From contig JAKLDJ010000001.1 in the NCBI GenBank assembly GCA_022703585.1, positions 246,891-310,890 of the forward strand: DNA of 64,000 nucleotides, written 5' to 3'. Positions within the stretch are counted from its first letter, which is position 1. Every line of letters begins with the position of its first letter. The notes under the pieces were generated by a model, which was given only the letters and a program-made list of their open reading frames with translations, made no database searches and was not told where the DNA came from. Shown piece after piece: positions 1-64,000 of the stretch. The position numbers and the translations under genes were made by a program. The stretch is from Candidatus Omnitrophota bacterium (GTDB lineage Bacteria > Omnitrophota > Gorgyraeia > Zapsychrales > JAKLDJ01).

Positions 1-420
1 AAACCGGCAAGTTCTATGCTATGCCGGTTGGTGATTTCATAAAGTCCCGGCCAGGTCCCGATATTCGAAATAACCGCCGTTTTGCCCTTAAATTCTTTAA
101 TGCGCCGGGCTAAATGTTCAGGAGAAGAAAGATCTTCCTGATGCAAATAATAATCTTTTCCCGGAATGAGGCCGTTAAGCCTGAAATTCTCCTGCGCATG
201 AGACAACAATCTAAAGTCATTATCAATCAGATCAAACCTTGCCGCGCCTAACCGCCATGCCGCCAGCGCCAGGATTCCTTCTGCGCAGCCGGCATCAATA
301 ACGCGTTTACCGGCTAAATCACAATGGAGTATCGCCGCGATAGCGGAAGTCGTATAGACGTGATGGCGGTTTAAGGCAAATATGCATAAGTCGAGATCCT
401 GGATAAGAATAACGTTTCGG
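1..420 (-). CDS. SAM-dependent methyltransferase small domain (RsmC/PrmA-like). It is in the -1 frame relative to the giant ORF, has no in-frame start codon, is partial (runs off the window start), and is probably the C-terminal continuation of the giant ORF through a frame disruption.
   Basis: Translation: RNVILIQDLDLCIFALNRHHVYTTSAIAAILHCDLAGKRVIDAGCAEGILALAAWRLGAARFDLIDNDFRLL...IKEFKGKTAVISNIGTWPG. Motif I is VIDAGCAEG. The frame has an in-frame TGA at 469-471 upstream and no ATG/GTG/TTG start between that TGA and the domain. The giant frame ends TAA 372-374 inside this domain. Confidence 0.55.
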
Positions 421-3400
421 GCAAGTTCTCTTTGAAGTGAAGCGCTCAGCTGTTTGTATTTTTCGGAATCAATGAAAAACAGGCAACCCACTCTTATAAA
501 ATAGTAGCCCTGGTTTCTTTGATAGGGCCTGCCCCAGCCATCGTGCTCTATTCTATGCAATTTTTCCGGCAATAAACCACCCCAACGTTCCCGGACAATA
601 CGACGAGGCCCAAATTGCAACAGGCTGTCAACGGCATCGAGATTATACATCTTCTCGTAACGAACATGTTCAAGGCCCAATTCATCAACAATCTTTTGGC
701 TTAAATTCCGGCAGGTTGATTCTTCAAGATGAACGGCTATTGGAGATTTATTGTCAAATGGAGTTGGGGCATACGCGGATTTCTGCTGAAGAAATTGCCC
801 GGCAGAACAACTTAATGGCCGCTGTGCCGGAGGGCCTCTGCTAACCCAATCAGAAAATGCATTTTCTATTCTAACAAAAACCTTTAATTGCCACGCCAAG
901 GTTAATATCGCCATCCAGGCAAAAATGACTATAAGCGGCAGATACGCGTTTAAATCGTCTTTCTTGTCGCCGAGCTTAGGTTTAAGCGACTCCCTGGTCT
1001 GAGGCTGCGAGGTGGCGGACGGTTTTTCCCAATTCGGAAACAGAGGCCGAATCCGGGTAATCCTTTTTTCCTCCAATGATAAGAAATAGAGCCCAAACAT
1101 TACCTCCACGCTACCCATTAGCCTGGAATCGGCGGACTGGACAACCGCCCTCAAAAACAAGTTCTTGATAGAAGTACCTGTTTGATCAACGATCGTTAAT
1201 GGACTGCCCTCGCTATTAATAAAATCTTCCATCAAGGCTTTTAGAATCTTGCGCAGCTGACGGTTAGGATTAAACCTAAGATCTTGAAGATATCTTTTCT
1301 GGAGGGCTAATTTTTCTTCATGTGTCCATTCTCTGATGTATGGCATAATCACGGAATCTATTTGGTCCGGAGGTGTAAATAAAAGCACAATAAAGTCCGT
1401 CACAACTTCGTGAATTAGAAGTCGACTACTGGCTAAATATCCGGCCCTTAGATAGACAAAACCCGCACCCAGGGCATGAACTGTTTCATGCAATAAAGCT
1501 CCATGCGGATCAAAAGAATGGACATCGACGACAACGACCCCTTTTACGTCTAAAGGAATTCCCAAGAATTCTAATAGTTGTTGCAGTGATATACCAAGGG
1601 CTCGGGCGCTATCCTCAAAATCACCCCTCGATATCCAACGACCATCCCAATCCATTCTCTCGGTAAGATAATCTTTGTCTGCTGGAGTGAACGCTTCTGC
1701 GGAAATAACTTTTCTCAAATAAGAATGCTCCTTGCTTCTGGAGCCGCTTTCATCAGATGCTAATAAGAACGCAAACAACGGATCCCCGAATTTAACATTC
1801 AGGAAATAGGGAATACCTTCCCGCGATAAAAGCGCAGTAATATCTCTTACCGGCGGTAAACCTTTTGTTTCGGGGAAATCGGAGAAATCTTCCCTGTCCA
1901 CGCCTTTCGTCATCCCTGATAAGGCAAACGGCAGCATCATCAGCGGCCATGAAGCAAAGGGCAGCGCGAAGCAGCCGAGGGCATCATCCTTTTCTCCCGA
2001 AGGTATAAAATTAGGTTTCGTTACATTTCGGTCTAAAACTTCTCTTCGAAATTGTTGAATAACAGGCAACTCATTGATCCAGGCAGACGCGTCGGCTAAA
2101 TTATCAAGAACTTCATTCACTTCGCCGACATATCCGTCGGGGATTTGGCTGTAGATTTGCGGCGGCTCTTGACTATCATCTAAGTAAAAATAATCAACGC
2201 CCGGAACAAGAAAATTTTCATCGACGTTAACATCGATGGTGCGAACACCATAACTCATTATTTCCGTAGTTATAGCCTGGGGAGGGATGATCCAAACTTT
2301 GCCGGGAGCAGCGACAAACATATATTGGACTTTGCGATTTTGCGATACAACACGATACCTTCTTACTTTCCTTCCGTATAATTCGGTTAATCCGCTCCTG
2401 TCTGTGCTTATTTCAACGATGCCTCTGCTAAAATCCGGTTCAAAACCATACACAAATTTTCCGGATGCAGGATCATTTTTCCTTGTAAAATAAGCGATTC
2501 TCCGGCCATGGTTAATAAGATTACGCCCGGATGCTCTCGCTTTTTGTCTTGGAGCAACAAAATCTCGATAAGGACCGATGCGATGATAGGGTGCCCTGCG
2601 CACAACCAAGCTAACAGCGGCAGCATCATGCCTGGGTCTTTTAACCTTTAAGTTAATCGCATCAAGGGCCGACTGAATTTCAAGAGGCAAATTCGTTGTC
2701 TCTTCCATCGAGACATACAGCACTTCCCCATTTTCATGAATAATCTTAAGATCTCCTTTGCCAAACCATTCATTATTTCCGTTTGAGCCGTGATGATGGG
2801 AGGCTGATCGCCACGCAAGAGAATAATCTTTGTAAAATAAACGCGGGTAAATAACCTGTTTACCGGTGGCAGGATGCCTCTCTAGAACATAGGCGACAAA
2901 CATTATTTCATCATCATCGAGCAGGGTATTGGTCAGATAATACGTCGTAGTGAAAAGCTGTATTTTATATTTTGGTGTATAGCCCCGCGATAATAAGCTT
3001 AAAGGATCATTTTTAGCTTTTCCAACGGGTTTTATCTCTACGCCGTTTTCAATAAGTTTTCTAAATTCGTATTCCACTTGTCGGGGGGTCATGTTTGAAG
3101 GACGAACCTTGCGTACAATCCGCGCGGCGGGTTGAGCCCTCTTTTTTCCATCAGTCGAATTATCTTTTACCATCCCCCCCACCGACAGGAAAACCGGCAA
3201 CAACATCAGCGGCCCGGCCTCGACGAGGCTCAAAAGGCCTGCGAAGGCCGAGGCGGGCAACAAAACCAAAGACCAAAGACCAAAGACCGCGCTCAAATCC
3301 GCCAGCGACCAGAAGGTAAAGAACAAGATAACGCAACTCATCTCGTCTTGTTGGGTATGCTCAAAGCTGCCGTGTGCCAATTTTATTTTAGCGGCACGCA

Positions 3401-6400
3401 CTTTAAACAGCGTTTGGTCTAAAATCCCGTTGTCCGTGAATGAAAAACAGGGAGTGGCCGTATCGCTATCAACAAAAAGCCTCTTGGCCCTTCCGCCTAA
3501 ACCTAGCTCGACGACCGCATCGGCCCTTAGGGCATCCGATAACCTTACCATTTCGCTTGAATACGCTGGCCTGTTAATTGTATCCAGAATACCTTCAATA
3601 ACATCATGGCTCGTCCTTAGATACCCTGTGTTGTTATTGGATACGATAGGCACCCATGGATCCCGGACTTCAATATTTCGACCGATAAAATCCTTCACGG
3701 CCAGACGTAGGTGGGTCCATTTCCTGGAATGAGAAGAAAATCTATTGTTCCTCAATAATAGCTTGGCCTTGATCCCCATCTCGCCAGAATGGGTAACCAT
3801 AAACTCTTCAAAATCGCCTAAGGTGGCATCGTCGACAAAAACCTTGCATCGGGGTACCGACCCAGCAGAATAAAATTTAAACACCTCAACGGCATCGGAA
3901 AATCTGCGCTCTAAAATACGTACCGCTTCATGGGTTCTCTCGCCATCCAGAACAAAGATATGATTCAGTCCGCGCGCAGCAGGGCTCTTTGCCCCTTCGG
4001 TAAAGATATAGCGTTCCAATCTTACCCCGTCTCCGATAGAAATCGCGCCACTGGCAATGGCCGAAGTTACTGACCCGAGGCTTTCTCCGGCAAATGCCTT
4101 GAATGCAAACGGAATTCCTTCTTTCTTGACAACTGCTTCAAAATAAGCTTTTAACGCCAAATTGATCACCGTAAGAGCTACGCTTAAAAAGCTCGGCCTT
4201 CTGGAATGGTCCGAAGGGATATTCCTGCTATTAATGAATAGTTTGGCCGGGTCAGGTCGGCCCTTATCATCTTTAAACCCTAAGGCCTCGGCAGCCGCTT
4301 TATAGAGAGATTGTATTTCGAGTATTCCCGTGTCATACAAAACACTGCCTACTCTTCCATAGGCGCCCACGCTACGAAAGCTCTGGAAGAGTCCTATTAA
4401 CTGAAGCTGAATATTACTACCTCTGTCTTCCCCGCCTACTATCCCCGCCAACGGCACCAAGGCCAAAGGCCAAAGACTAAAGACCAAACTAAGACCAGCC
4501 AGCGGCACAAACGCACCGAGACGGCCTGCGTCCGAGGCCTCACTCGGATTTGGCGCACGGTAGAGAATCATGCCCTCGCTACGGATTTGCTCAGGGGACG
4601 TATGCGTTAACCCACGATCATCGCTAAAAGCCACATGCGGCTTAACACCGACCGATTCCTCGCGGGCAAAATAAAGAATCTCATTTTTTAACCGCCAGGC
4701 ATCCATATCCGTGCCGGGCGCATCGATAAAGATATCCGCATCGGCGTCAACGGGTGTCGGCGCGCGGGACAAGCTGCCGAAAAGATACAGGTTGAATTTC
4801 CGCACCTTAACCCGGTCAACGGCTCGCCCGACCAGCCAACGGGCATCGGCAATCCTTGCGTCACGTTCCGAGTCCGTAAGTAACGGGCGCGCTTTCTTGC
4901 CGCCCTCCTTATCTTGCATCATTCTTAACGGTTTGTCTCCCTCAATGCGACGCCTGAGCCCTTGTTCAGCTGCCTCACTGCCAAAGAAATAATACGTGCC
5001 TTCAAGGTCGAGCCCGCCCTGCCCTACAGGCTTTTCCGTCAGGTAAGAAAACGGGGTGATCCTGCCGATATCGGAAGAATAGAAATCAATATACATAGCC
5101 GTTGGTTTTTCGCCGGCACGCTCAAGATAAACAAATCCGTTTTTAATAGTTGCAGTTACGCCTGCTTCATTAAGAAACGCCGCGGCCTTTATCATGGCGA
5201 CGTCAAAAATATCCTGCGCCTGTTCCGGGGTCAAGGTATCGTCGAGGTAAACCCTAAAATCAACATCCTTCCTATTCCAAAACGCCCGGCCGTGGGCTTT
5301 AAAAGATTTCGGGAAACTGCCCTCGGCCTTAACCAATACACTTTTACCACCGGAGGCTTCATAAAACGCCCGCGTTACAATATCAACCACATTGGCACCC
5401 TGCCAGGTGCGCGCCACATCAACATGAAAGATGTTTTCCTTAAGCGTGTACGCCGTCTTTTCTATCCCTAAAAGCTTAATAATTTTTAACGGATCAAAAG
5501 CGGCCAACGGCAGAAAAGCGCCCAAGGATTCATCAAGCACAGTTTTCGCCGCAGCAAATACTTCCTCGGGGGTTAAGCGGTACGGATTCCCTTCCGGAGA
5601 TTTAAGAATGATGCTTCGGTCGGTCCAAGGACGGCATTCTGTCTGATTGGTAGAACCGAAAAGCGAAATAATCTTAGGGGCATTGACCGCCGCAGCCACA
5701 TGCGTCAAGCCGCAATCATTGCCGATGACAATATTCGTACGTTCAAGCACCGCCGCCACAACATGGATAGGCTGATTCGAAACCACCGCAACCTTTTCCG
5801 GATTTTTAACCGCTGATAAGAGTTTTTTATCGAGTCCGTCTTGTTGTTCTTCCGGGCCCAGAAATACGGCAAACTTCATTTGCGGAAATTCATCATGCAT
5901 GAGATTAACCAGCTGGGCAAAATGTTCGACGGGCCAGCGCCGGAGCATAAACCATCTGCCGCAGCCTAAATTCAGGCCAATCAAGGCTTCAGACTCGGTG
6001 ATGCCGTTTTGGGATAAAAATTCCCGGGCTGTTGCCTTTGCCGCGTCCGGAATGGTCAGCTTAACCGACATGTCAAATCCATGGCCGGGATTTACGCTTA
6101 ACGCCCCAAGGCTGGTAAGGCGAAATAGGTCCATATTCGTCTCGGCATGATGGCGATGGGAACTAAATCCTACAGCGTTTTCATGATTTAAAAACGACAG
6201 CCTCGCCTTTGAATCCAGCCCAATGCGGTACCGGGCCAAAAGCGCCCCCAGGATACTATCCATGTAACGCCACCGCGAGGTGACAATGCCCAAATCCGCC
6301 TTTTTAAAGATAAAAGGCATCAGCCTCGACACTTCCCGAAGGCTCTCTTGCAACCTATGCATACGGGGTGAAAATCGGATGACCTCATCAATATACGGTT

Positions 6401-9400
6401 CGTGAGTAAGAATTCCGTTTGAAGAGCCGTTGGCAATAACGGTAATCCGCGCCCGAGGCAATCTTTTCCTTAATTCCTTTAGCATCGGAATAAACAGAAC
6501 CGTGTCGCCCATGCCGTCGTGTAAAAAGACAATAACGGTTCGAGCCGAAGAAAAATCCGCCCGCTGCCGGCCCAGGTATATTCTCGTCAGAAACTTAACC
6601 GGATACAGCCCCAAAAGGACTCCTTCTCTTATAAATTTCTTTGCTGTTCTAAGCAAAATTTTTGAGAGTATTTTCACGGCAAGGACAAAGGCGTATCGCG
6701 CCGACCATTGCTGCTCTTCTTTAACAAGCTTCTCGATGCGCCATTCAATAGGAGAAAGATTTCCGTCCGGCATGCGGTATCCGGGCCCCATTAACAAAGT
6801 CAGGATGCTAAAATATCCGGGCAGGCGGCGGGAGTTAATCTTTTCTCGATAGGCTTCAGTTTCTTCATCCGCCGTAATCGGCCTGGGGCCAAAAAACGAC
6901 ATCTCTCCTTTTATAATATTAAAGATTTGCGGCAATTCATCCAGGCCGGTTAAACGTAAAAACTTTCCTATCAGCCCGCTGCGGTTATCTCTCATGGTGC
7001 GTATTTTATAAACCCTAAACATCGTTCCCTGATATCCGACACGTTCCTGGATAAAGAATCCCGGCTTTTTGAAATCGGAAAGCTTAACGGTGGCCCACAA
7101 AATTCCAATCATCGGCAGAATCACGGGCATCGCAATCCACGGAACCACCCTATCAATCAACTTGATATACCAAAGATTATGAATGAGTTTCCCGGCGTCT
7201 CCGCCTTGCGGATTTTTCTGACGATCTTCTGCTATCATCCCCGTCAGGGACAGAAGAACCAATCCCGGCACCAGGCAGCCGAGCCTATCGGATACGGCGG
7301 AATCACCGCGGCCTTCGCCTTCAGTTTCAGTAATCGGTATTAGGCGCAGCCTTCGTTCCAATAACTGCTCAAGCCGGGCTTGTTGTTTTTCGCGCGAATC
7401 GCTGCGGTCATCGCCAAAGCCGCCCCGCACCCGGACAGTAAGATATTCCCACCCGTTCTCAAAATAAAACGGCGTGTAACCATTACGTATTAAGAAATAA
7501 TTGGCCATAAACCAGGCAAGCCGGTGATGGCCGTCGGCGGTATGGGGAGCAAGCGCCCCGCGTTGCTGCCGGCCGCCGGGAGTAACCGTGTCAAATCCGG
7601 CTAACCCGGGAAAAAGCCTGGGGATATAAGTAAAATTGAAATTTAGAAACGCCTGTCCAAACCCGACGGCCTTATAGATACGCGCTGCCACGCGGATAAC
7701 GATTGCGCGATCGGCATACCGCCGATTCGCCCAGTCAACATACGGCATCCCCGCCACCGACTGCAACCGTTGTCCCCGTATCTCAGCGGTATAGGCAGGA
7801 TTTTCTCTGTCGCCTCTGAATAATTCATACATGTCCATGGCATACTCCCATGTCAGCGGCACCCCGGAGGCAATGAGCCGGTTAAAATAATCGATAGCGG
7901 ATTCAAGCCGCGGCATAATATTAGAAGAAGCCAATGCCGCCGCTCGTTCGGGCTCGAGCCGGGCTTGAGCAATCATTCTCGTTGCCGACCCGGCCTCGAT
8001 GAGGCCAAAAAGCCCTAATAAGGCCGAGGCGGGCAGGAAGGCGGCGATCGTATCGTCGTGGCTTGGTTCTTCATCCACAGCTTGCGGCATTACAGATAAC
8101 ACGCTGCCCGAATCAATATCTTGGGTAAACGAGATATACGCATCGAGTGCGGCGCTATAGGCTTCCGCAACAAAACGTTTTTCATCCAAAGACGGATGAT
8201 TCTCTTCTCCGATCGAAAATAGCCGGCTGCGCATGGATTGCGCAACGGCGCTTTTGCCCTGCAGGAATTCTAACAGTGTCAAGGCAGCAGATATTCTCTT
8301 TGCGGCTTTTCTGAAATGCTCATCCTCTGTTTTCTTTTTAATAAAAGTATTGTTCATCCGTTGATGAGATATAATCAACAACCTCGAAATTTCGGCTATA
8401 TTGTTTTGGAATTGGTTTGGCGTACTAACAAATTCTTTACCCCACACAACAAGCTGAGCCTTATTGGTTCGCGTGCGGTGAGAGTTAACAACCCATACCG
8501 GATGGTCTATAATCACACCTTGGGGCACCTCCGGAGTCACATCGCTTTCCAACACTTCCCGGCCTGTTATGATCATACCCATTTTTTGTATTTGCTTTTC
8601 CAGGGTTATATCTTCGGGCAAGGCTAAAACCAGGTGATCTATATCCAAAGCGGTTAAAATTCTCCCCTCAACAACAACCAGAATGTCTAAATCACGAGGG
8701 TGCGCACTATACAGATAGCTTCCGAAAAACGATATATTGACAACTTCGTACCCTAAGGATTGACGAATATATGAGAGTAGGCACGGAACAATCTGCAAGA
8801 GTGATCGAGCCGTTGCAAATACTTTTTCCTGGTGGGGCTTCTTGAGAATTTTAAAAATTCGCATATAATTAAGCTGCTCTAAGAGCAGTTCGTCTGTTGA
8901 TACATCAACATCACGATCGGATAACACCCTCAACGGAAATTCAAATACATAGTCCCGCATCTCGGGAACAGCAAGCTCGGCAATTTTCAATTTATCTGCA
9001 TTAGTCAATTGATTGATTGTGTTACCTTCTGAATAGCTGCGCGGATGATGAAAATCTTCGCTCTCTCCCGCTTGTCGCGGCCCGGCAGCGGACAACTCAC
9101 TCCTTCTTCCATCGCCCTTTTCGTCTCTCGTCATCCCCATGAGTACCATCGGCAGCGCCAGCAGAAAAGCAAACGGCACAAAGGAGCAGGCAAGCTCGCC
9201 GTTGATGTAGGAAGCCACGTCCCGGCCAATCGGCAGGTTAGCACGCACGCGCACCAAATTCCGGAGGTATTCATACGGTACCGGTGCGCTGAAATTATTC
9301 CTAGACCCGATAATACAATCAATGCGCAGGGCTTTCTTATCATACGTTGCTTCGGCTGGGATAATCAGGCCCCTTGGTTCCCGATGGGCAAAAAGCCTGA

Positions 9401-54400: not shown

Positions 54401-57400
54401 CCATGGAGGGAATGCCATAGTCCACTTTAACAGTCACAATTAACTTTTCAGGTGTCACGCGAACCTCAACAAAACGTATGGGTGTACGGTACACATAGGT
54501 AACCTCATTGCCATCACCACTGGGCCCTATTAGTTCGACGGCTGATTCCTTAAGGCCAACATATGCCTTGGAGGCATTAGCGATACCCTGTTCAAATAAT
54601 CCGCGCTGCTCCTTATCAAGCTCTTGGAGTGTCCGGCAATTTTCAATGGTAAATTCAACAGTGGTCGTCTCCCAGTCATACGGTCCGAACAATTGATAGA
54701 CCGGCCATCCTAAGGTGTAATCGGAAGACATAAAGCACCCGACCTCAAAGACTCCTTCGTCGCGTACCGCCAGCTTCTGCCTACGGTTCTTATGGGAGTG
54801 GATGCTAAAGACAACCGTTTCTCTTTCTTTACGCTTGAGAGGCAGGCCGTAGGGCGGGGGATTTAAGTCACGCAAACCAACTGCCTCGCCATACCACATT
54901 TCGCCAATCAAAACTAACGCATCAAACTTTCGGCGCACGCTCGTCTCTAAATCTTGGTACGAGTCGGCTGTTTTGATGGCCAGCTGTTGCTTACGATAAT
55001 AATCACCGAGGGTACGTGCCTTTTCACCGAATTTCTCCTTTATAATGCCGTCGAAATACGGCACCAGGAACTGCACATCCATATCGGTGGCGTCACTGCG
55101 CAGCGTCGGCTCGCTCTTGGCAAAAAGTGTCACCTGAAAACCTAATTCCAAAAGAAGATATGTCTTCCAGAGCACCATCAGAAGTTCGATACCGACATTG
55201 TCGGTCGCAATCGCAACGGCTGCCTGGCCTTTTTGCTGGACGCGCTTTAGAACGGCCAAAAATTCATCGCGATGGTCGACAGCGCTTTCTTCTTTGCCCT
55301 TAATGCCCGCGCCGCGACTGAGATCGTCAGAAATATTTCCGGCGGCAACAGCTTCAAACGAATCGCGATACAGGCTCCAAAGATCCTGGGGCAATGCCGA
55401 CGGCATCGTTTTTATAAATCGCGAGAAAGCCTCTAATCCGTTTTTCAGAAAGGTTCTCTTGTCGCGCGCGTATTGATCACCTCTTAAATACGCCCGGTCA
55501 CGATCTCTCGGGAAATCTTCTATGCCCTTCGTCCCTCCGATAGTTAACGGTCTCTTTTCTTTGAGGGCCTTCCATCCCCAAACGAGATTGCCCAGATGAT
55601 CGAGCATGCGATACAACTCCGTTTGCTCATCTAAGGCAACCCTGCCGAAATTCCAATCGCTCTCGTCGATACGGTCGGGATTATATTTCGCAAGAAACTT
55701 ATCAAGAAAGTCTCTTGTCTCGCCTGATAGATCGACATCTTTGTCAGCCCGCAAATCTCGGGCATAGCTGACAGCATCATACAGGCGATACATATATTGG
55801 GAAAACTTAATCAGATGGTGGTAGGTACGCAAAAGTGCCCCTGACAGCTGATCATCTTCGCGCCGTTCTCTTTTTTGTTTCAAGCTGTCCAATCGATGCC
55901 GAGTCTCTTGCAATTTCTGCTCAAGCCGTATTTCTTCTTTGCGGCGCGCCTCGATCACGTTTGGATCTTCTTCAATGATCTTGCGGCGTTCATATTCAAA
56001 AGGCCAATATTTTTTGAGTACATCAGCCGGATTAATCTTCATCGCAACACCCTGCTCGCGCAAAAATGCAATGGCCACCTCGATCGGAAATCCGACGATG
56101 GTCAGAGGATTACCCTCAACACGATCAACGGTCAAGAAGAAGTCTCTATCCTGAATACCGAATCCACCCGCCTTGCCGTAAAATCTTCCGGCCTGTACAT
56201 AGCGCTGCAACACATCCTGGACAGAAACGCTATCTGCGAGCGTTCGATAAGAGGCAAGGTGTCCGTATCCGTCTTCTCCGGCGAGGCTTTTGAGGATGGC
56301 AAGCTCTTGTTCGCGTAAAAGCTCATCGGCTGCTTTCATGTGCAAGTAGGTCAGCCCGTATCCGAGTCTAACCGTAGCCTCCGCGGTATTGATGATTGCG
56401 ATACCCGTAACGGCCTCGATGCTCTTGCCGCAGAGAGCTTTCAGAATTTCAAGGGGTTTGTTTTTCTGGTGCAGTTTCCCGATAACATTGCCGTCGACGA
56501 GCATTGTCGTATCGCTTGCAATGATGATACCCTGATGCTCGCGGGCAACAGCCCATGCCTTTTGGAGAGCAACGGTCATCATCGCGCTCTTATAGGAGGC
56601 ATCTGTCGGAAGATATTCTTCAATCTCAGCGGGAATAACGCGGTAGTTATCCTTCAATAATAAATCCAGAATCTCTTTTCTGCGCGGCGATTGAGAAGCC
56701 AAAATGACACCGTCACTTTCTGTCTCGCTGACACCGATTCGGCGCAAAATGATACCGAGCGCTTTTTGTGCGCGTTCTCTGTCTTTATCAAGCATCCGGG
56801 CAATCAGGGTCCATGCTTCTTTTTTGTCTTTTGTCAGAGCAGAAAGAACAGTTTCTGCATCAGCCGACGCGTCCTCTTCGGTTGTCATGCCAAGGAAAAT
56901 TGCGAGTACGAAAACAGGCGGCATAAACAGCATAAAGGCCCTCAAAGTACCGTCGGGGCCATTGTCTTCAAGGCTATCCGGACGGTACAGCGCAAATGCC
57001 GCTGCCAAATAATCATCCAGTTCATACAGCGAGGTGTCGCGGCGTTTCACAATGGCCGAAAAGGCTTCAATAATACCAAAGATGTCTGACGGGTAACCAA
57101 AAAGCCTGACATATTCCCGGGTATGGTCGGCAAGCTTGACCGGGCCCAGAGAATAAATCTTCCTTAATAAAGACTCCTGCGGCTTAGGCAAGGACATGAC
57201 TTGTACGATCGCCGTAACCCAGATATTGAGTTTCCCAAAATGTCTTTCCTCTTCGCTGAGGCCCTGGATTTTATCGATTGCCCTGATTTCCGCCAAAATT
57301 TTATTAACCTGGCGGCGCAGTCTTTGGGAGGCCGCTGATTCACCCTCCGCCGTCATGGCGGTGAGAATAGGCAATAGGGAGAATGCGAGCGGCGCGATAA

Positions 57401-60400
57401 AAAGCGTAAAGCTATAAAGGTGTTCGCCGCGGGCATTGAATTCTTCAGCGGTTAATTTACCGTTAAGGTTCAGCCCCTCGACGGATTTCTGCCAGTAGTC
57501 AAATGAATCACCGATGACGGAGCTGTAAACCTTATTGAGTTCGCTCAGGGCGCGGAACAACGCGACAACGTAATTATTGAAACCGACTAAGCGTAAAGAC
57601 CTTAGGATCCTTGAAATCCTTAAGAAATTGTGGTTCGTTTCCGATAACCAGATCTGACGCCGCTCTTCAAATCTCGAAGACGGCTGTATGCGCACCTCAT
57701 CATTTTCAACGCTGTATTCGAACCCGTAGAAATTAAGCATCAGGGCCAGCGACTTGAGCATGTTTTCCCTGAGTAATTCTCCTACGGGCGAGGACTCACG
57801 GAATACCTCTAAAGTTTCTCTCGTAAAGATAGGCCCAACAAACCTGCCTCCCAGACTGACACCATCAAGCCTTATATCCCATTCAAATATTTCAGAACTT
57901 TCTTTGAGAGGAAATAGCAATTGAATGTAGTTATGTTCGGTTTCTAACCGTTCGTCATCGTATCCCATAGCCGAGTCATCACCGTATCCAAAAACCTCAA
58001 AAATATATCTTCCTTTATGGTCAGGCCCGATCCCCTGGTAGAAATCGATCAAGGGTTGATTGATCCCCGTGAAAGGCCATCGCTCTTCCTCCACCGTCAT
58101 GGCGGTTAAGGCCGCAAAAACCATCTGGGCGAAGATGCCGAAGAATATTCCAAGCCCGCTAAATCCATAAATCACTTCAAATTCACCCTTTTGGGCGGTT
58201 TTGCGCACGACCCTACCCTGCAAAGCGGCTTTACCCACGACCCTACCTTGCAAAGTTGTTTTCAAGATAGCGGCCTGTTCGCTACCGGCATTCGCCAGAG
58301 AAAAAGGTTCGCCTGCGGTCACAATCAAGTCCGAGAAAAGATAGGCACCCGGTTTCATCATCGCGATACTTTCACGAAGCTCGTATAATTCTCGGTCGTT
58401 TAGGTAGCGCGTCACATAATTAAGGAAGATCATGTCCGCCTCTTTGATCGCCTCTAATGTTTTCTGCGCCGTAACGTCACCGGTGACGAATTGGACCATC
58501 TGACTGCCGCATATACGCGGCAAGGAGGCTGATAAAAATTCGGCAATCCATGCCTTCATAGCCTGATAGTGCCGACTGACAATGTTATCTTCAATGACTT
58601 CGGGTAAGTGACGATCTTTTCGTTCGTCTAATACATAAATAACATCCTGAGGCTGAATGTCGCTACGGCCAAGAAGCTCTTGGGCCATCGCTACATACCT
58701 GCTATCTTTGTCTATGCCCGTAATACGCACCTGCGGAAGATCTTTTGTCGGGTCATAACGCTCCGGGTAACGTTCAAACTGATGCAAAATAGTGAGGGCA
58801 ATCGATAGGGCTTCATGGCCCTTTGAGCTGCCCAGGGAAAGGACGCGTAACGTTCGTCTGCCTTCTTCGCGGGACTGCTGCACAATTCCCGGCAAACGCT
58901 TTTCCAAAACAATGAACTGGGCCGGCAGCCGGAAAAACGATGTGTGATGTTCTATATCGGGCTTTGCCTCTCCCGTCATCGCCGGCAAGGCCAGAGCCAG
59001 TTGCACAAAAACGCTGAAGAACACACCGAAAATATCAAACCCGCACAAGGTATCAGCTGGAACAGTTTGGGCATCAGTCGCCGAGACCCAAAGAATTTCT
59101 TCGTCAACGTCAAAGCGGTAACCCTTGCCATCCGGCAATGTCAGGCGCGCATCCATATATCGGAGAATACGCGGGATAATACTCTGGCGGCGGTCTTTGT
59201 CCGGCAGAACGGCTGCCACCAAATGAAGCATTTCCTCTCGCGATAGGGTTTCATGAATAAAGCGTATCCGTTGCACCTCCACCGGATAACCCCAGGAGCG
59301 AATCTTGTCTTCGAGATTGGTCGCCCGGCCCTTGGGGACAAAGGAATGCTTTTCCATAAGAGTAGACCGGACAGCGACCTGGTTTCTGGCGGTGGGGATA
59401 TTGCCGTTAAGCACAATCGCCAGGCGCCCGGCTTTATCAATGAGCGGCAATACTTTCTTCTTTAAAAGCAGGTCGCGCTGATCGAAGGGAACAAATAATA
59501 AGGAATGCGACATCACGATCCCGTGCAATTTCTGCCCTCTTAAAACATCAATCTTCTCAAAGAAACTTCCGGTAATAACACTCAGCCCTTCGATCTCTCT
59601 GGTTTTAATCACGGCGGCCCGCCCGGAGTCTTTCTCAATCGCCAGCACTTGATCAAAATGGACAGCAACCCGTTCGGTAATCTCACCGGCACCGGCCCCT
59701 AAATCAAGTAACTTTCGCGGAGACGGCACCCCGGTAAGGAATTTATCAAACCCTTCGGATAGCCGCTGGCCGATACTCCGTTTTTCTACGCTTAATAACC
59801 TCTGGCCTGCCTTGTTCATTTGCTGCCAGTCAAAATATTTAATCGGCTCTTCGCTGCCTTGCGGCTGCCCTATCATCCCCATCATCGCCGGTAACGCCAA
59901 AAGAACAGAGAACGGCAGCACGACCATACCTATTGGCAACAGGGCCGCGAGGCCTGCGTCTCCCGTCTCTTTGATTGGGCCTTGGCTGTTCGTCACACGC
60001 GCCGCAATGCCGCCATTCTGCGCGCGTTGTTCCTGCTGATCGAGCCCAAGAATATAACGGATCGTTGCAATCTGGTCAGGATCGGTAATCCCAACGGTAT
60101 CTTGTGCGTATTGTTCAACCACAAATTCGCGCCCTTGAGGAGCAGTAACCTGCAATTTCTCGGCATGACGATCGATAAATACAAGCACCACCTGAAATCC
60201 GCTGCCATCAATCATCTGCAATGCATCAGCAATCATATAGGCGGCTTTCAGCCGCGCAGCAACCGTTGGCAGGTGCCGATACATGTCGCGCAAGAGGGCA
60301 ATCATGGTAAAATCATGGCTCGGTAGCCGGCTGCGCATAACACGCTCATAATCTTCGCGTTTGACAATCCATGGAATAGAAAGAGTCTCGGCAACCTCCC

Positions 60401-63400: not shown

Positions 63401-63746
63401 TGACTAAGGCCAAAACCACTTCATCGGCAGCAGTCTGTTCCTGATATTTGCGGTACACGTGCATTCCGTTATGAGTCGAACGATACAGCTGGTCGGTAAT
63501 TCTGGGGTCATCCTCGGCAGAAAGATAGAAATCAACAAAGCCGTCCCGCTGAATCTTCTCAACAATGGCCCTTTGGATGGCAATCATCGCCTCAATGGTA
63601 CTGATCAAGAATTGGCTGCCTTCATAATCCATGATCTTTAAGCCGTCAACATTGCTGGGCGAATGAGACGATGTTCCGCAGAATGACAACACAAAATTGA
63701 AGAACTTGCCCATCGTAGAAGTATTCCAGATGGCGGTTGCCGCATT
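372..63746 (-). CDS. giant multi-modular ORF: one uninterrupted minus-strand reading frame of about 63.4 kb (>21,000 codons); stop TAA at 372-374; frame open upstream to TGA at 63747-63749; first in-frame ATG at 63711-63713; probably continues further 5-prime via a frame disruption
   Basis: Hand reverse-complement translation at about 26 anchors (plus 2628, 3252, 4512, 6921, 8043, 8355, 8724, 10545, 11184, 13512, 14808, 18384, 20229, 23094, 26919, 30000, 35175, 38448, 42696, 47780, 50490, 53496, 59958, 62000, 63000, 63500). All give protein-like sequence with recognisable motifs in the same frame (codons on plus positions 3k..3k+2), with no stop at any sampled site. All ~40 minus-strand ORFs in the supplied track are in the other two frames and no long ORF is listed, which fits one uninterrupted frame. 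The frame terminates at TAA 372-374. Confidence 0.6.
1250..1700 (-). other. module: second HExxH zinc-peptidase-like motif region
   Basis: ALLHETVHALGAGFVYLRA verified at 1441-1500. Confidence 0.35.
3190..3300 (-). other. instance of the recurring linker motif (double hydrophobic segment)
   Basis: MSCVILFFTFWSLADLSAVFGLWSLVLLPASAFAGLLSLVEAGPLMLLPVFLSVGGM verified. Confidence 0.6.
3262..3288. repeat. heptanucleotide tract (CCAAAGA)x3 inside the coding sequence; encodes VFGLWSLV
   Basis: accaaagaccaaagaccaaagacc. Confidence 0.6.
4440..4515 (-). other. instance of the recurring linker motif
   Basis: EASDAGRLGAFVPLAGLSLVFSLWPLALVPLAGI verified. Confidence 0.6.
4461..4498. repeat. imperfect heptanucleotide tract (CCAAAGR / CTAAAGA), ~5 units, inside the coding sequence
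   Basis: ggccaaaggccaaagactaaagaccaaactaagacca. Confidence 0.5.
4520..4900 (-). other. module: second minimal nucleotidyltransferase domain
   Basis: LYLFGSLSRAPTPVDADADIFIDAPGTDMDAW; its coding DNA located at 4693-4790. Confidence 0.45.
5650..6650 (-). other. module: glycosyltransferase family 9 (heptosyltransferase-like)
   Basis: GNDCGLTHVAAAVNAPKIISLFGST; its coding DNA located at 5651-5725. Confidence 0.5.
6880..7300 (-). other. module: bacterial sugar transferase (WbaP/EpsL-type polyprenyl-phosphate glycosyl-1-phosphate transferase C-terminal domain)
   Basis: SGLIGKFLRLTGLDELPQIF(NIIKGEMSFFGPRP) verified at 6921-6990. Confidence 0.55.
7990..8046 (-). other. instance of the recurring linker motif
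   Basis: DDTIAAFLPASALLGLFGLIEAGSATR verified. Confidence 0.6.
8560..8760 (-). other. module: minimal nucleotidyltransferase (Pol-beta superfamily) domain
   Basis: NISFFGSYLYSAHPRDLDILVVVEGRILTALD verified at 8641-8740. Confidence 0.5.
10250..10700 (-). other. module: M48-like zinc metalloprotease (HExxH) embedded in hydrophobic segments
   Basis: LILGHELAHTTEKHHVVSL verified at 10501-10560. Confidence 0.5.
11120..11190 (-). other. instance of the recurring linker motif
   Basis: DGDSVAAFLPASALLGLFGLIGLALSAVEGAGL verified. Confidence 0.6.
11250..12400 (-). other. module: polytopic membrane domain, possibly O-antigen ligase/polymerase-like
   Basis: Multiple long hydrophobic stretches read by eye; assignment weak. 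Confidence 0.2.
13440..13515 (-). other. instance of the recurring linker motif
   Basis: TPLAAFLPFADFNFVFSLWSLVCLPLAGM verified. Confidence 0.6.
13457..13484. repeat. imperfect heptanucleotide tract (AGACYAR)x4 inside the coding sequence
   Basis: agactaa agaccag agactaa agacaaa. Confidence 0.5.
13560..14950 (-). other. module: uridine kinase/phosphoribulokinase-family P-loop kinase domain
   Basis: DSPTKVILVIGGASTSGKTHLAKELQ...FVMNYDYMDVERHDAEAREHILEAYYDRTIDVIIYEGIGT verified at 14580-14810. Confidence 0.55.
18250..19000 (-). other. module: sigma-70 family sigma factor-like domain, copy 1
   Basis: RAFLTHVVAKHLPRLPKKEQYVVRRYYLEGMTLKTIGESLGVTESRACQIHAKAIER verified at ~18270-18440 (region 4 HTH); region 2-like FDSSRGASLKTWIIGILRPRMIDQARL. 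Confidence 0.55.
19030..21110 (-). repeat. in-frame tandem array of 8 divergent copies of an ~83-97 aa HTH-like unit (DNA period 244-292 bp), immediately N-terminal to sigma-like module 1
   Basis: DNA anchors gagtcaacggatt / ggtcaaggggtgatt recur at 19139, 19391, 19640, 19884, 20146, 20436, 20728 and 21010. The unit encodes ...LLALAKQHFDAI.DPNDWPKNPLT..IM.EL.L..NSVQYYSKKMN..L.AAGYPKIGR... Confidence 0.6.
22221..22300 (-). other. instance of the recurring linker motif
   Basis: EDSTSELACLFMPFMVLPVSMALAGMTQAEH verified. Confidence 0.6.
23035..23100 (-). other. instance of the recurring linker motif
   Basis: FLMPLVFLPVSAFAGLSEAGP verified. Confidence 0.6.
24800..25200 (-). other. module: GHKL/HATPase_c-like ATPase domain
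   Basis: G-box-like GSHGRGVGIPLSRLIVEVHDGTLEI read by eye. Confidence 0.3.
26000..26700 (-). other. module: class I SAM-dependent methyltransferase
   Basis: QNDRMVVADVGSGAGQISEWLY verified at ~26555-26620. Confidence 0.5.
26830..26925 (-). other. instance of the recurring linker motif
   Basis: EAAEALGAFMLVADLNLVFGLWSLVLTSLA verified. Confidence 0.6.
26863..26890. repeat. imperfect heptanucleotide tract (AGACCAA)x4 inside the coding sequence
   Basis: aagacca aagacca gagacca aagacta. Confidence 0.5.
27150..27750 (-). other. module: trypsin/chymotrypsin-like (S1) serine protease domain
   Basis: HRDSGSICSDRVETIPGDSGSPLVI verified at ~27200-27270 (GDSGxP Ser motif); upstream TATHVVC His motif read by eye. 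Confidence 0.55.
28250..32350 (-). repeat. divergent tandem ~90-100 aa repeats (RAARF...IVGAWFG...PHW.EALD units) on both sides of sigma-like module 2 (29450-30120)
   Basis: Protein-level repeats read by eye. Example DNA similarity: 30580-30625 against 28333-28380. Confidence 0.35.
29450..30120 (-). other. module: sigma-70 family sigma factor-like domain (regions 2-4), copy 2
   Basis: GWEGVQQALTTYDSSRGMSL verified at 30000-30059; region-4 HTH LGPREQHIIRSLRAGVTQRAIARELGVSEFVMCRLRQAIIERLR verified at ~29500-29640. Confidence 0.55.
35131..35180 (-). other. instance of the recurring linker motif
   Basis: SEDNALGCYLLFIGIP verified. Confidence 0.5.
36100..36190 (-). other. instance of the recurring linker motif
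   Basis: APDDFKEDLLCTLGLWTGLFFISLLGA...VKPAAEQEKLSP verified at 36061-36200. Confidence 0.55.
37300..38000 (-). other. module: HD-domain phosphohydrolase
   Basis: ELHDLGKDSPRRFAIHDGTDV located at 37731-37800. Confidence 0.45.
38348..38450 (-). other. instance of the recurring linker motif, with an embedded heptanucleotide tract
   Basis: GILLPLADVSNLFSLWSLVFSLWSPSFLPLT verified. Confidence 0.6.
38378..38412. repeat. heptanucleotide tract (AGACCAR)x5 inside the coding sequence; encodes the LWSLVFSLW part of the linker motif
   Basis: gagacca cagacta aagacca gagacca aagacta. Confidence 0.6.
38600..38960 (-). other. module: class I SAM-dependent methyltransferase
   Basis: DRAQPLNILEVGAGALQLSRRLLREF verified at ~38880-38960. 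Confidence 0.5.
42250..42700 (-). other. module: RelA/SpoT-type HD domain ((p)ppGpp hydrolase-like)
   Basis: GLKRDNGEPYIFHPVSVLY verified at 42661-42720; downstream ALGHD and VKAADRLHNILT match the SpoT HD and ADRLHN motifs. Confidence 0.5.
45050..45500 (-). other. module: Nudix hydrolase-like
   Basis: Nudix-box-like ETREENGQENALEKPLEAILRGLNEELSL read by eye; not re-verified against DNA. Confidence 0.25.
47350..47950 (-). other. module: methyltransferase small domain (RsmC-like)
   Basis: IGCGNGIDVIAARI verified at ~47775-47815; downstream DVILWNAPEP, a variant of the NPPF/Y-like motif. Confidence 0.45.
50441..50500 (-). other. instance of the recurring linker motif
   Basis: SAVMPGMELFVFAALLGAI verified. 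Confidence 0.55.
50500..51620 (-). other. module: sugar-nucleotide NTP-transferase (nucleotidyltransferase) domain
   Basis: AYRHSLIRGEWAVLIPAAGD(ARRLGLGKPKALL) verified at 51601-51660; Gly-rich NTP-transferase signature. Confidence 0.45.
52000..52700 (-). other. module: class I SAM-dependent methyltransferase
   Basis: HLVLDFGMGLFP motif I; its coding DNA gcccatgccaaaatc located at ~52515-52530. Confidence 0.4.
52900..53700 (-). other. module: tRNA-dihydrouridine synthase (Dus) TIM-barrel domain
   Basis: LYAKAAAVASQIGVSAIDINMGSGPLAD verified at 53461-53550 (DINMGCP-like motif); downstream PVSVKTRI...IPIFGNGEV. Confidence 0.55.
56140..56710 (-). other. module: Maf-like nucleoside triphosphate pyrophosphatase domain
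   Basis: VILASQSPRRKEILD verified at ~56665-56710; downstream IIIASDTTMLVDGNVIGK. Confidence 0.5.
56865..56946 (-). other. instance of the recurring linker motif
   Basis: AFMLFMPPVFVLAIFLGMTT verified at 56881-56940. Confidence 0.6.
58170..58965 (-). other. module: CheR-type methyltransferase-like domain
   Basis: RTLRVLSLGSSKGHEALSIALTILHQF resembles the CheR SAM-binding region RIWSAGCSTGEEPYS. Read by eye, not independently re-verified. Confidence 0.3.
58203..58258. repeat. 30-bp direct tandem duplication inside the coding sequence; encodes ALQGRVVGKA / ALQGRVVRKT
   Basis: cacgaccctaccctgcaaag at 58206-58226 and cacgaccctaccttgcaaag at 58236-58256. Confidence 0.6.
59055..59870 (-). other. 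module: class I SAM-dependent methyltransferase
   Basis: Motif I VPSPRKLLDLGAGAGEI verified at ~59690-59730. Confidence 0.5.
59874..59960 (-). other. instance of the recurring acidic-flanked hydrophobic linker motif
   Basis: TGDAGLAALLPIGMVVLPFSVLLALPAMM verified at 59881-59960. Confidence 0.6.
61440..61545 (-). other. instance of the recurring hydrophobic linker motif
   Basis: EVLEAENSNALALIPGLELVSILVQLILALPGVLGAVAN verified at 61441-61560. Confidence 0.55.
61990..63746 (-). other. module of giant ORF: alpha-D-phosphohexomutase (PGM/PMM/GlmM family)
   Basis: Active-site region FCGTSSHSPSNVDGLK (~63650) and C-terminal signature RPSGTEPKLKSYGFGLDPERL verified at plus 61981-62040. Confidence 0.6.
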
Positions 63747-64000
63747 GTCAGGAACCACATGGCAAACAAATCCCAGGGCAGCAAGGGTCCGGGCGGTAAT
63801 AGCCTGGAAGAGATTGCTGTGATACCGTACCTCATGGCCGTAATTCGTCTGATAAGGGAAGTACGCTCCCTTGTTATAAAGAATCTTCACCATAAGGCCT
63901 AAGGATAACGATGTCAGCAGCCTTTCAAAAGAATTCTTAATAACCCGGGTATCGTGAATATCGGTAATATTCATCGCATGCCTGATACCGGCGATCGCCA
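63638..64000 (-). CDS. 5-prime continuation of the giant ORF in a different frame. It encodes the N-terminal part of the phosphohexomutase (PGM/PMM/GlmM-like) module, ends at TAA 63638-63640, overlaps the main frame, and runs off the window end.
   Basis: Translation in frame +2 reads ...IHDTRVIKNSFERLL...ITARTLAALGFVCHVVPDNAATAIWN. The main-frame sequence TSTMGKFFNFVLSFCGTSSHSPSNVDGLK continues it (SASHNP-like active-site Ser motif). Protein-level continuity across the junction implies a 1-nt frame disruption near 63715-63725. Confidence 0.5.

Follow-up and report, generated by a model that had tools for sequence, protein, structure and literature searches.

Omnitrophota are known to carry giant multi-enzyme open reading frames (ORFs) that have yet to be understood, and these raise a question: does the product act as one chain or is it cut, where would the cuts fall, and on which side of the membrane do the modules lie? 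We address this question for a 64,000-nucleotide (nt) stretch of Candidatus Omnitrophota bacterium DNA (assembly GCA_022703585.1, contig JAKLDJ010000001.1, positions 246,891 to 310,890; hereafter the window), the minus strand of which is filled by a single stop-free ORF carrying a recurrent hydrophobic element, termed here the junction. Giant ORFs have been reported in most Omnitrophota classes (Seymour et al. 2023, PMC10066038), thousands of proteins of at least 10 thousand amino acids (kAA) are catalogued, and autoproteolysis has been raised as a possibility, with the cleavage points said to be unknown (West-Roberts et al. 2023, bioRxiv 10.1101/2023.11.21.568195). The layout in the window is that of beads on a string, where complete units (methyltransferases, Maf, Dus, sigma factors, glycosyltransferases, proteases and uncharacterised folds) follow one another head to tail in one frame, and the junction stands where an ordinary operon would have a stop codon, an intergenic spacer and the next start codon. 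We consider it likely that the gene is real, a multi-enzyme giant in which whole protein units are linked by a conserved junction.

Does the window contain one gene? When stops were counted in all six frames of the 64,000 nt, one minus-strand frame, with codons at plus-strand positions 3k..3k+2 (window 3..63998; 21,332 codons), proved free of TAA, TAG and TGA, while the remaining five frames hold 648-1,401 stops apiece. Base composition gives an expected stop rate of 0.05 per codon, at which the chance of a stop-free run of this length is ~1e-472. Codon-position statistics are uniform over 42 consecutive 500-codon blocks (G at position 1 ~0.35, G at position 2 ~0.17, purine at position 1 ~0.6), which indicates that the frame is coding throughout, and GC content stays level along the window at 0.46-0.52. 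The ORF is open at both window edges, with terminal segments that are in-frame continuations. These data support reading the window as an internal piece of one giant gene, which reaches past both edges and has at least 21,332 codons. Reassignment of a stop codon is ruled out as the source of the open frame, since all three stops are missing in frame and plentiful out of frame. The window holds no tRNA, rRNA, marker gene or Rfam family, and a scan of window 1-20000 found promoter-like and terminator-like sites no more often than in shuffled controls.

An earlier note on this DNA had proposed one open minus-strand frame and a single gene of more than 21,000 amino acids (aa). The frame was borne out in a stronger form than stated there, including between 375 and 63746, the interval for which the note had suggested a stop count and where none was found, and the reading as a single giant gene is supported by the codon count and the uniform coding signal. 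The boundaries that the note assigned did not survive: its TAA at 372-374 lies on the plus strand, the minus-strand codon being TTA (Leu), and its TGA at 63747-63749 reads GAC (Asp), with a nearby TGA in another frame. The note was correct that the gene continues past both edges, but the segments before 372 and after 63747, which it described as frame-disrupted, are in frame. It was likewise correct that no long minus-strand ORF had been listed; the cause is that the listing program leaves out ORFs running off the ends, such that a listing at a 120-aa minimum returns only 17 ORFs, all on the plus strand and 120-203 aa long. The longest of these antisense 'shadow' ORFs, at 49056-49667 (plus strand, 203 aa) and 26722-27279 (plus strand, 185 aa), have no Pfam match and probably reflect the scarcity of stops in the complementary frame without being genes.

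Could the open frame be an artefact, whether from chimeric or faulty assembly, from pseudogene decay or from sequence that is not biological? No identical or close sequence was found in the searched collections, which leaves the assembly without independent confirmation. A chimera or a decaying pseudogene would gain stops, however, and here there are none; the codon-position signal and GC content are uniform, many modules have significant if divergent homology to real families along with intact catalytic motifs and a confidently modelled fold, and Omnitrophota relatives are equally fused, including one locus (L007) that stays open over 6,714 aa. We regard an artefact as highly improbable. In amino-acid composition the product resembles common globular proteins (L 10.6%, A 8.8%, R 7.5%). 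Tandem Repeats Finder returned just two trivial arrays in the window, and self-BLAST indicates that the protein is almost non-repetitive, apart from one 8-copy array of ~90-aa repeats, one ~375-aa paralogous dark pair and two sigma-like units.

What joins the units? A Kyte-Doolittle scan, which is a crude predictor and was the sole basis for calling these segments, yields 36 hydrophobic segments (37 under a slightly different merging rule), or ~1 per 580 aa, and many of them have a common pattern. An iterated hidden Markov model (HMM) of this pattern, an element of ~45 aa, recovers 22 copies that score at least 15 bits and 4 others that are weaker or truncated. With the same model, the reversed sequence, 20 full shuffles and 20 block shuffles give no copy that reaches 8 bits (control maximum 5.6 bits), and leave-one-out scores of the copies range from 5.7 to 29 bits. 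Regular expressions for the two junction halves occur 12 and 9 times, versus 0.3 and 0.55 expected in shuffles. The consensus consists of an acidic/Gly stretch, [LV][GA][AC]F[VLM](L)P[FL], an uncharged core of ~20 residues that usually contains two prolines, L-x-[G/A]-M-[T/V] and a further acidic stretch. Among Met-anchored copies, position -3 is Leu in 12/16, -1 is Gly or Ala in 15/16, the anchor itself is Met in 14/16 and never Cys, +1 is Thr in 9/16, and +3 to +5 are mostly Glu or Asp; the anchoring is partly circular for positions -1 and 0, as 16/22 copies were chosen by [GA]M. Copies are spaced at a median of 486 aa (range 77-2,396).

Pairwise identity between junction copies is 0.41, 0.52 and 0.30 at codon positions 1, 2 and 3, respectively, against a background of 0.26. 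That is to say, positions 1 and 2 are conserved and position 3 is near background, which indicates that the junction is translated and under protein-level selection, and that it is not a recent DNA repeat. A DNA-level repeat or mobile element as the origin of the junction is ruled out by the same third positions and by Tandem Repeats Finder, which found nothing relevant. One pair stands apart: the N-terminal halves at aa 18638-18667 and 17595-17620 ('VAAFLPASALLGLFGLIGL') are near-duplicates, with 67% identity over 30 aa, far above other copy pairs, which points to a local and more recent duplication close to the M48 protease unit. AlphaFold2 (AF2) modelling of a lone junction with 20 paralogues gives a short helix, an F-x-P kink and one 22-residue helix running through the Met, with a predicted local distance difference test (pLDDT) score of 77-86 over the core. 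A re-entrant hairpin is unsupported, since the model is one kinked helix. No NCBIfam sorting-signal model matches 10 junction copies at E<=10, and the element is apparently undescribed.

Inspection of the sequence between junctions reveals units that correspond to complete proteins. The 'RPEP' module has ~60 free-standing soluble homologues (296-375 aa) that lack hydrophobic termini and span exactly one inter-junction unit, their N-termini projecting to aa ~13905-13930 and their C-termini to aa ~14230-14260. These homologues begin 'M...(13 aa)...RPEP', where the giant ORF reads 'LAG-M13926-...(16 aa)...RPEP'. In explicit alignments, Met1 of the free-standing protein P0023 projects to aa 13929, 3 residues from junction Met13926, and Met1 of P0036 projects to aa 13101, 2 residues from junction Met13099; P0023 ends at ~aa 14244, ten residues ahead of the next junction core. 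Elsewhere in the chain, a junction directly precedes sigma unit 1 and the Bac_transf unit, and a truncated junction follows GT9. An AF2 model of the RPEP unit with its two junctions presents a confident α/β fold (pLDDT >90 over most of the unit, mean 84.6), in which no structure is modelled for the upstream junction and the downstream one forms a long low-confidence helix directed away from the fold.

Are the junctions simply transmembrane helices? Published topology predictions, taken at face value, would make this an uncut polytopic protein with modules alternating between the cytoplasm and the periplasm or surface, and the hydrophobic core of ~20 aa, the single continuous helix in the AF2 model and DeepTMHMM surveys that place 94% of Omnitrophota giants, at a like helix density, in membrane classes all agree with such an arrangement. 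The details of the element fit it poorly. Both flanks are net acidic (-1.3 each, versus a background of ~0) with no positive-inside asymmetry, and specific residues (F, P, L-x-G-M-T) are conserved beyond plain hydrophobicity. Moreover, exactly one hydrophobic segment, at two hydrophobicity thresholds, separates the DREV-type methyltransferase from CheR (both S-adenosylmethionine (SAM) dependent), the Methyltransf_11 unit (SAM) from HATPase (adenosine triphosphate, ATP), and HATPase from CheR (SAM). Single segments between such cofactor-dependent neighbours are a misfit to plain alternating transmembrane topology in an uncut chain, as SAM-, ATP-dependent or sigma modules would face outside. Sigma factors require access to RNA polymerase, so the embedded full-length sigma units also favour something other than alternating transmembrane helices. 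FliA-type sigma factors and SAM/ATP enzymes parted by single hydrophobic helices are thus hard to square with topology-predicted 'extracellular' readings, and West-Roberts et al. themselves term some predicted localisations 'highly unlikely'. We judge the plain transmembrane reading unlikely.

A second alternative is suggested by the junction Met, which few other positions match in conservation and which aligns to within 2-3 residues of Met1 in free-standing homologues. The ORF could be a stop-free polycistron, in which internal starts at the junction Met make separate proteins and the hydrophobic stretch upstream is a by-product or leader; the 60 nt upstream of these sites are U-rich (36% vs 26%), in keeping with this. 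None of the 16 junction AUGs has a Shine-Dalgarno-like sequence, however, and the upstream region is A-poor (10% vs 24%) and not less structured (-11.1 vs -9.3 kcal/mol, p=0.09). Ahead of the Met, conservation is found at codon positions 1 and 2 rather than 3, and in Pro, Gly and Phe residues, which indicates that this stretch is translated and selected as protein. In addition, 21,332 stop-free codons would be purposeless if read-through were irrelevant. Internal initiation is accordingly improbable in our estimate, if less so than an artefact.

How, then, might a giant gene of complete units joined by junctions work? The gene would probably be translated as one chain, a polyprotein, with the junction helices probably holding the chain at the cytoplasmic membrane and possibly serving as recognition or cleavage sites. 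The likeliest cut would be L-x-G/A | M, made either by one of the two embedded proteases (S1 or M48) or by one of the host, and it would free complete proteins with their ancestral Met first and a C-terminal hydrophobic tail. We infer from the sequence that the junction may function as a polyprotein tether or cleavage site. A cleavage step at junctions is a tentative proposal that we hold to be somewhat doubtful, and its most specific form, in which the junction is a dedicated processing or sorting signal cut as L-x-[G/A]|Met-Thr at 20 or more sites to free tail-anchored enzymes and sigma factors, would be unlikely to the same degree as plain transmembrane helices.

What do the relatives show? 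A 1,500-aa query by word index found no close relative in a collection of 5.8 billion proteins (E<=1e-5), despite a clear Maf domain in the query. Single-protein locus searches found no relative in GTDB species genomes, JGI metagenomes or IMG/VR, and megablast against phage records gave no match. HMMER with aa 13101-14300 against 1.84 billion cluster representatives gave 122 matches, each within a single module and at identities of 41% or less; among the long matches (2-7 kAA), every named one is a 'Candidatus Omnitrophota bacterium' protein. Locus searches with a 5-sequence alignment of the best module recovered six GTDB loci, five in Omnitrophota genomes and one in a 'Planctomycetia' metagenome-assembled genome, as well as four metagenome contigs; in these loci the module is again part of long frames without stops, from 2,000 to at least 6,714 aa in length. 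In the Omnitrophota relative P0002 (L004, JABMRJ010000121.1; aa ~1170-1990), the same module is flanked by a two-helix hydrophobic junction of its own, '...LLALLIALPSFGFLSSAAGMALGIGIIMALTSGLLWF...', present in three copies and with a first helix that ends AGM, an ending that may reflect distant kinship with the window junction. Other relatives join this module by soluble Pro/Ala linkers, and with such varied joints, junction design appears lineage-specific. As a separate observation, P0007 (7,375 aa; L001 1-32128, JGI Ga0209515_10000063) is directly preceded by a same-strand ORF of at least 9,964 aa and then followed by N_methyl (pilin-like) genes, a neighbourhood that agrees with published work linking giant genes to pilus and type II secretion system loci.

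Several observations weigh against a giant gene of complete units with a conserved junction. The gene ends, neighbours and taxonomic markers lie outside the window, and the Omnitrophota assignment within this analysis rests on module-level similarity of 41% or less. Some unit boundaries carry no junction, including those between the helix-turn-helix (HTH)-like array and sigma unit 2 and between Bac_transf and GT9. The AF2 junction model, one kinked helix of moderate confidence, equally fits an ordinary transmembrane helix. The junction motif was found neither in the 122 related proteins nor in 13 related loci (six-frame translated), nor in the 5.8-billion-protein collection (word index), and its conservation is measured among paralogous copies within one gene, no orthologue having been found. 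Set against the stop-free frame, the uniform coding signal, the shuffle-controlled junction and the agreement of unit ends with free-standing proteins, these points leave the giant multi-enzyme gene as the reading that we favour.

Where do the junctions fall along the chain? All copies lie on the minus strand and were scored with the HMM. From the N-terminal side, the first five are at aa 1327-1388 (59835..60020, 30.5 bits), aa 1629-1693 (58920..59114, 29.6 bits), aa 1925-1978 (58065..58226, 28.0 bits), aa 2177-2230 (57309..57470, 29.8 bits) and aa 2330-2388 (56835..57011, 39.7 bits). A weak junction-like copy at aa 4488-4525 (50424..50537, 5.9 bits) precedes those at aa 5543-5598 (47205..47372, 45.3 bits), aa 7684-7749 (long form; 40752..40949, 29.4 bits), aa 10145-10197 (33408..33566, 38.0 bits) and aa 10274-10313 (33060..33179, 30.8 bits). 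Directly upstream of sigma unit 1 lies a short variant (...DEALGCFILPFMMIGRM) at aa 11255-11273 (30180..30236, 7.3 bits). It is followed by copies at aa 12342-12399 (long form; 26802..26975, 20.0 bits), aa 12731-12768 (25695..25808, 28.4 bits), aa 13055-13113 (24660..24836, 45.5 bits), which contains Met13099, aa 13599-13654 (23037..23204, 33.0 bits), and aa 13886-13937 (22188..22343, 40.2 bits), which contains Met13926. The copy at aa 14252-14289 (21132..21245, 17.0 bits) starts ~10 aa past the point where RPEP homologues end. Beyond it are copies at aa 15714-15764 (16707..16859, 42.9 bits), aa 16812-16863 (long form; 13410..13565, 32.1 bits), aa 17587-17623 (11130..11240, 17.1 bits) and aa 18244-18304 (9087..9269, 36.4 bits), and a weak junction-like copy at aa 18646-18666 (8001..8063, 3.5 bits), seen by both HMM and self-BLAST. 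The copy at aa 18882-18932 (7203..7355, 27.9 bits) stands directly upstream of the Bac_transf unit, and the truncated junction at the end of the GT9 unit, aa 19489-19501 (5496..5534), consists of the N-terminal half only (DESLGAFLPLAAF). The last two are at aa 19808-19870 (long form; 4389..4577, 29.5 bits) and aa 20656-20713 (1860..2033, 36.9 bits).

Which units lie between them? Pfam, NCBIfam and PDB sequence searches assign at least 15 distinct, unrelated Pfam families above gathering cut-offs, with no family dominating by copy number; the commonest groups are ~6-8 divergent SAM-methyltransferase units and 2 sigma units. Annotated residues make up only ~19% of the protein. All NCBIfam matches fall far under equivalog or subfamily cut-offs, except that to the broad sigma-70 superfamily model TIGR02937, which reaches its own, and these scores indicate that the domains are very divergent. 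Methyltransferase units comprise one DREV/Erm-like, two CheR-like, two MTS/PrmA-like and three Methyltransf_11 units, and motif inspection finds the GxGxG signature intact in several of them.

Like the junctions, all units are on the minus strand. The N-terminal part opens with a weak PGM/PMM domain I-like match at aa 54-139 (63582..63839; Pfam E=0.01, below cut-off; Arch_GlmM 1.7e-5). It continues with the DREV/Erm-like SAM methyltransferase core, recognised by Pfam, NCBIfam/PDB searches and its LLDLGAGAG motif, at aa 1426-1467 (59598..59723), the CheR-type SAM-binding domain of unit 1 (Pfam) at aa 1685-1776 (58671..58946), and an OGFr_N-like domain (Pfam, 1.5e-16) at aa 2014-2173 (57480..57959). 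Domain searches place a Maf nucleotide pyrophosphatase-like domain at aa 2431-2554 (56337..56708) and a tRNA dihydrouridine synthase (Dus)-like domain at aa 3487-3738 (52785..53540), and between these Pfam detects an ARMT1-like damage-control phosphatase domain at aa 2889-2981 (55056..55334). An MTS/PrmA-type methyltransferase with a GCGNG motif was found by domain searches at aa 5390-5500 (47499..47831). The NUDIX-fold domain at aa 6176-6293 (45120..45473; Pfam) may be catalytically inactive or divergent, as motif inspection did not find the canonical Nudix box (GX5EX7REUXEEXGU) in it. A Methyltransf_11 / UbiE-like methyltransferase follows at aa 8343-8436 (38691..38972; domain searches).

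The central part contains the sigma factors. Sigma unit 1 is a full-length FliA/WhiG-type factor at aa 11286-11504 (29487..30143; profile 5-223 of 224 in profile searches). It is flanked by paralogous dark units of ~375 aa at 10824-11200 and 11590-11946, which are 26-32% identical (window 28161-31529, minus strand); HTH-type Pfam matches to the first of these are all sub-threshold and lie near its residues 148-184. A trypsin-like S1 (Trypsin_2) serine protease occupies aa 12129-12264 (27207..27614; Pfam), and motif inspection finds its catalytic motifs (TATHV / DDIAFL / GDSGS) intact. Next come a Methyltransf_11 methyltransferase with a DVGSGAG motif (Pfam) at aa 12475-12593 (26220..26576) and a HATPase_c (histidine-kinase-type ATPase) domain, from domain searches, at aa 12971-13067 (24798..25088). 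CheR-like methyltransferase unit 2 matches at aa 13226-13420 (23739..24323; domain search and free-standing homologues), and the unit as a whole begins at ~aa 13099, aligned from residue 15 of P0036.

The RPEP module at aa 13926-14245 (21264..22223) has no Pfam match and is delimited by its free-standing homologues and the AF2 model. Its family ('RPEP...NPVAA.LVQ.R', ~300-350 aa, many free-standing members) has invariant R131, D132, G202 and G205 in the numbering of the modelled segment. Foldseek gave no confident PDB match for the fold, the best being 8a0m and 7shg (polysaccharide-synthesis multienzymes) at E ~1e-3 and a TM-score of ~0.3, and a PDB profile search with the module returned nothing significant. 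The P0023 gene (L002 5001-5957; GCA_053533735.1, JAIYMM010000057.1) has archaeal-type neighbours, namely ribosomal L37ae, an RPAB4 zinc ribbon, prefoldin and S15/S13_N. From this single case, some giant-gene modules may have archaeal-type counterparts, which are of interest because Velamenicoccus is reported to have archaeal prey.

Eight tandem basic repeats of ~90 aa follow at aa 14286-15009 (18972..21143; self-BLAST), HTH-like by eye and with no family match, one repeat giving no Pfam match at E<=1. The array is R/K/P-rich with a core of 'NHPLT.K.IM..L.V..S.I..Y..KMN.DL..AGYPKIGRS', its repeats are 34-52% identical, and it lies directly upstream of sigma unit 2, a second full-length FliA/WhiG-type factor at aa 15027-15246 (18261..18920; profile 2-221 of 224, PDB FliA residues 7-244 of 254). 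The C-terminal part contains a weak HEAT-repeat match (Pfam) at aa 16529-16602 (14193..14414) and, preceded by a cluster of hydrophobic helices at aa 17272-17702, an M48 (HtpX/Ste24-type) zinc metalloprotease at aa 17781-17936 (10191..10658; Pfam), the HELAH motif of which is intact. Domain searches assign a Bac_transf (PglC-type polyprenyl-phosphate glycosyl-phosphotransferase) unit at aa 18945-19068 (6795..7166), a GT9 heptosyltransferase-like unit at aa 19163-19470 (5589..6512; TIGR02201 10-306 of 344, PDB 3tov 9-309 of 349) and a PrmA-like methyltransferase at aa 21212-21286 (141..365).

How does this gene compare with known giants? Omnitrophota ORFs of up to 85,804 aa have been described (West-Roberts et al. 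2023), and the 'multi-enzyme metabolic cluster' class (class 1) reaches 147,155 aa, with PF08241, PF02518, PGM/PMM, NUDIX and HEAT domains and a helix every 370-1000 aa (Nielsen & Lui 2026, bioRxiv 10.64898/2026.06.07.730766). The earlier note's ranking of this gene among the largest bacterial genes known is thus outdated; this gene, at 21 kAA or more, is large, yet of a known kind. By its architecture and the affiliation of its detectable relatives, the window ORF fits among the Omnitrophota multi-enzyme giants, as what appears to be a new and very divergent member. It resembles the class in being an uninterrupted ORF of more than 10 kAA with many distinct Pfam families, none dominant, and in sharing with class 1 the PF08241 methyltransferase, PF02518 HATPase, PGM/PMM, NUDIX, HEAT and peptidase families. 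Its Kyte-Doolittle helix density lies within the class 1 range, with a hydrophobic helix roughly every 400-1000 aa as a shared feature, its domains are highly divergent, its sequence is mostly dark, and its nearest module-level relatives are Omnitrophota. It is set apart from known Omnitrophota giants in that no orthologue of it was found, with identity reaching at most 41% and per module only. Term searches found neither its pairing of two full-length FliA-type sigma factors with a single-helix junction ending in Met nor either part of it in Nielsen & Lui 2026 or West-Roberts et al. 2023; the terms linker, motif and hairpin are absent from the former, and the latter contains no defined cleavage site. 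The SecA_DEAD, C39/S8 peptidase, dockerin and carbohydrate-active enzyme-type domains of the Archaeovorin/Dockerin-type giants (West-Roberts et al. 2023) were not detected in the window, which is an internal gene fragment, so that the gene may encode such domains beyond its edges.

Nonribosomal peptide synthetase/polyketide synthase (NRPS/PKS) genes and giant adhesins are likewise single ORFs of tens of kilobases, and large ORFs of Chlorobium chlorochromatii are cited among giant-gene examples (PMC10066038). An NRPS/PKS megasynthase is ruled out, as Pfam and NCBIfam detect no condensation, adenylation (AMP-binding), carrier (PP-binding), ketosynthase or acyltransferase domains, and so is a repetitive adhesin, given the lack of Ig-, cadherin- or RTX-type repeats, the globular composition and the single 8 x 90-aa array.

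In viral polyproteins (Flaviviridae, Picornavirales, nidovirus pp1ab), unrelated complete proteins occupy one stop-free frame with short conserved junctions and embedded proteases, and in flaviviruses internal hydrophobic segments stand next to cleavage sites with small residues at -3/-1. The window has the same one-frame arrangement of unrelated units, conserved junctions and embedded proteases, but its ORF is an order of magnitude longer, and its cleavage is putative. A viral polyprotein as such is ruled out by the lack of phage or viral matches, the lack of viral hallmark domains and the cellular domain content. The junction end L-[LATSM]-[GA]-M also recalls the lipobox L-[AS]-[GA]-C and the signal-peptidase c-region (small -1, aliphatic -3, Pro 4-6 residues upstream). 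Unlike a Sec signal peptide or lipobox, the junction has no basic n-region, its flank being acidic, has Met rather than Cys at +1, is internal and matches no curated model; unlike exosortase/sortase C-terminal sorting signals, it is internal, has an acidic downstream flank and matches no NCBIfam model. A cut at the junction would turn the unit before it into a cytoplasmic domain that ends in a hydrophobic tail, as in tail-anchored proteins.

What would this mean for Omnitrophota giants? A sequence-defined junction in 22-26 copies, lying exactly between equivalents of complete proteins and ending at the counterpart of their initiator Met, makes the processing question testable: if junctions are processed, the predicted neo-N-termini are M-T-x-E-E and the C-termini L-x-G/A. 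Junctions also give rational points at which to cut giant proteins for structure prediction. Should the junction prove to be a dedicated processing signal, it would provide the cleavage points that prior studies called missing, and bacteria would have in this gene an equivalent of viral polyprotein expression, which might package a whole regulon or set of effectors for an Omnitrophota cell living as an episymbiont or predator.

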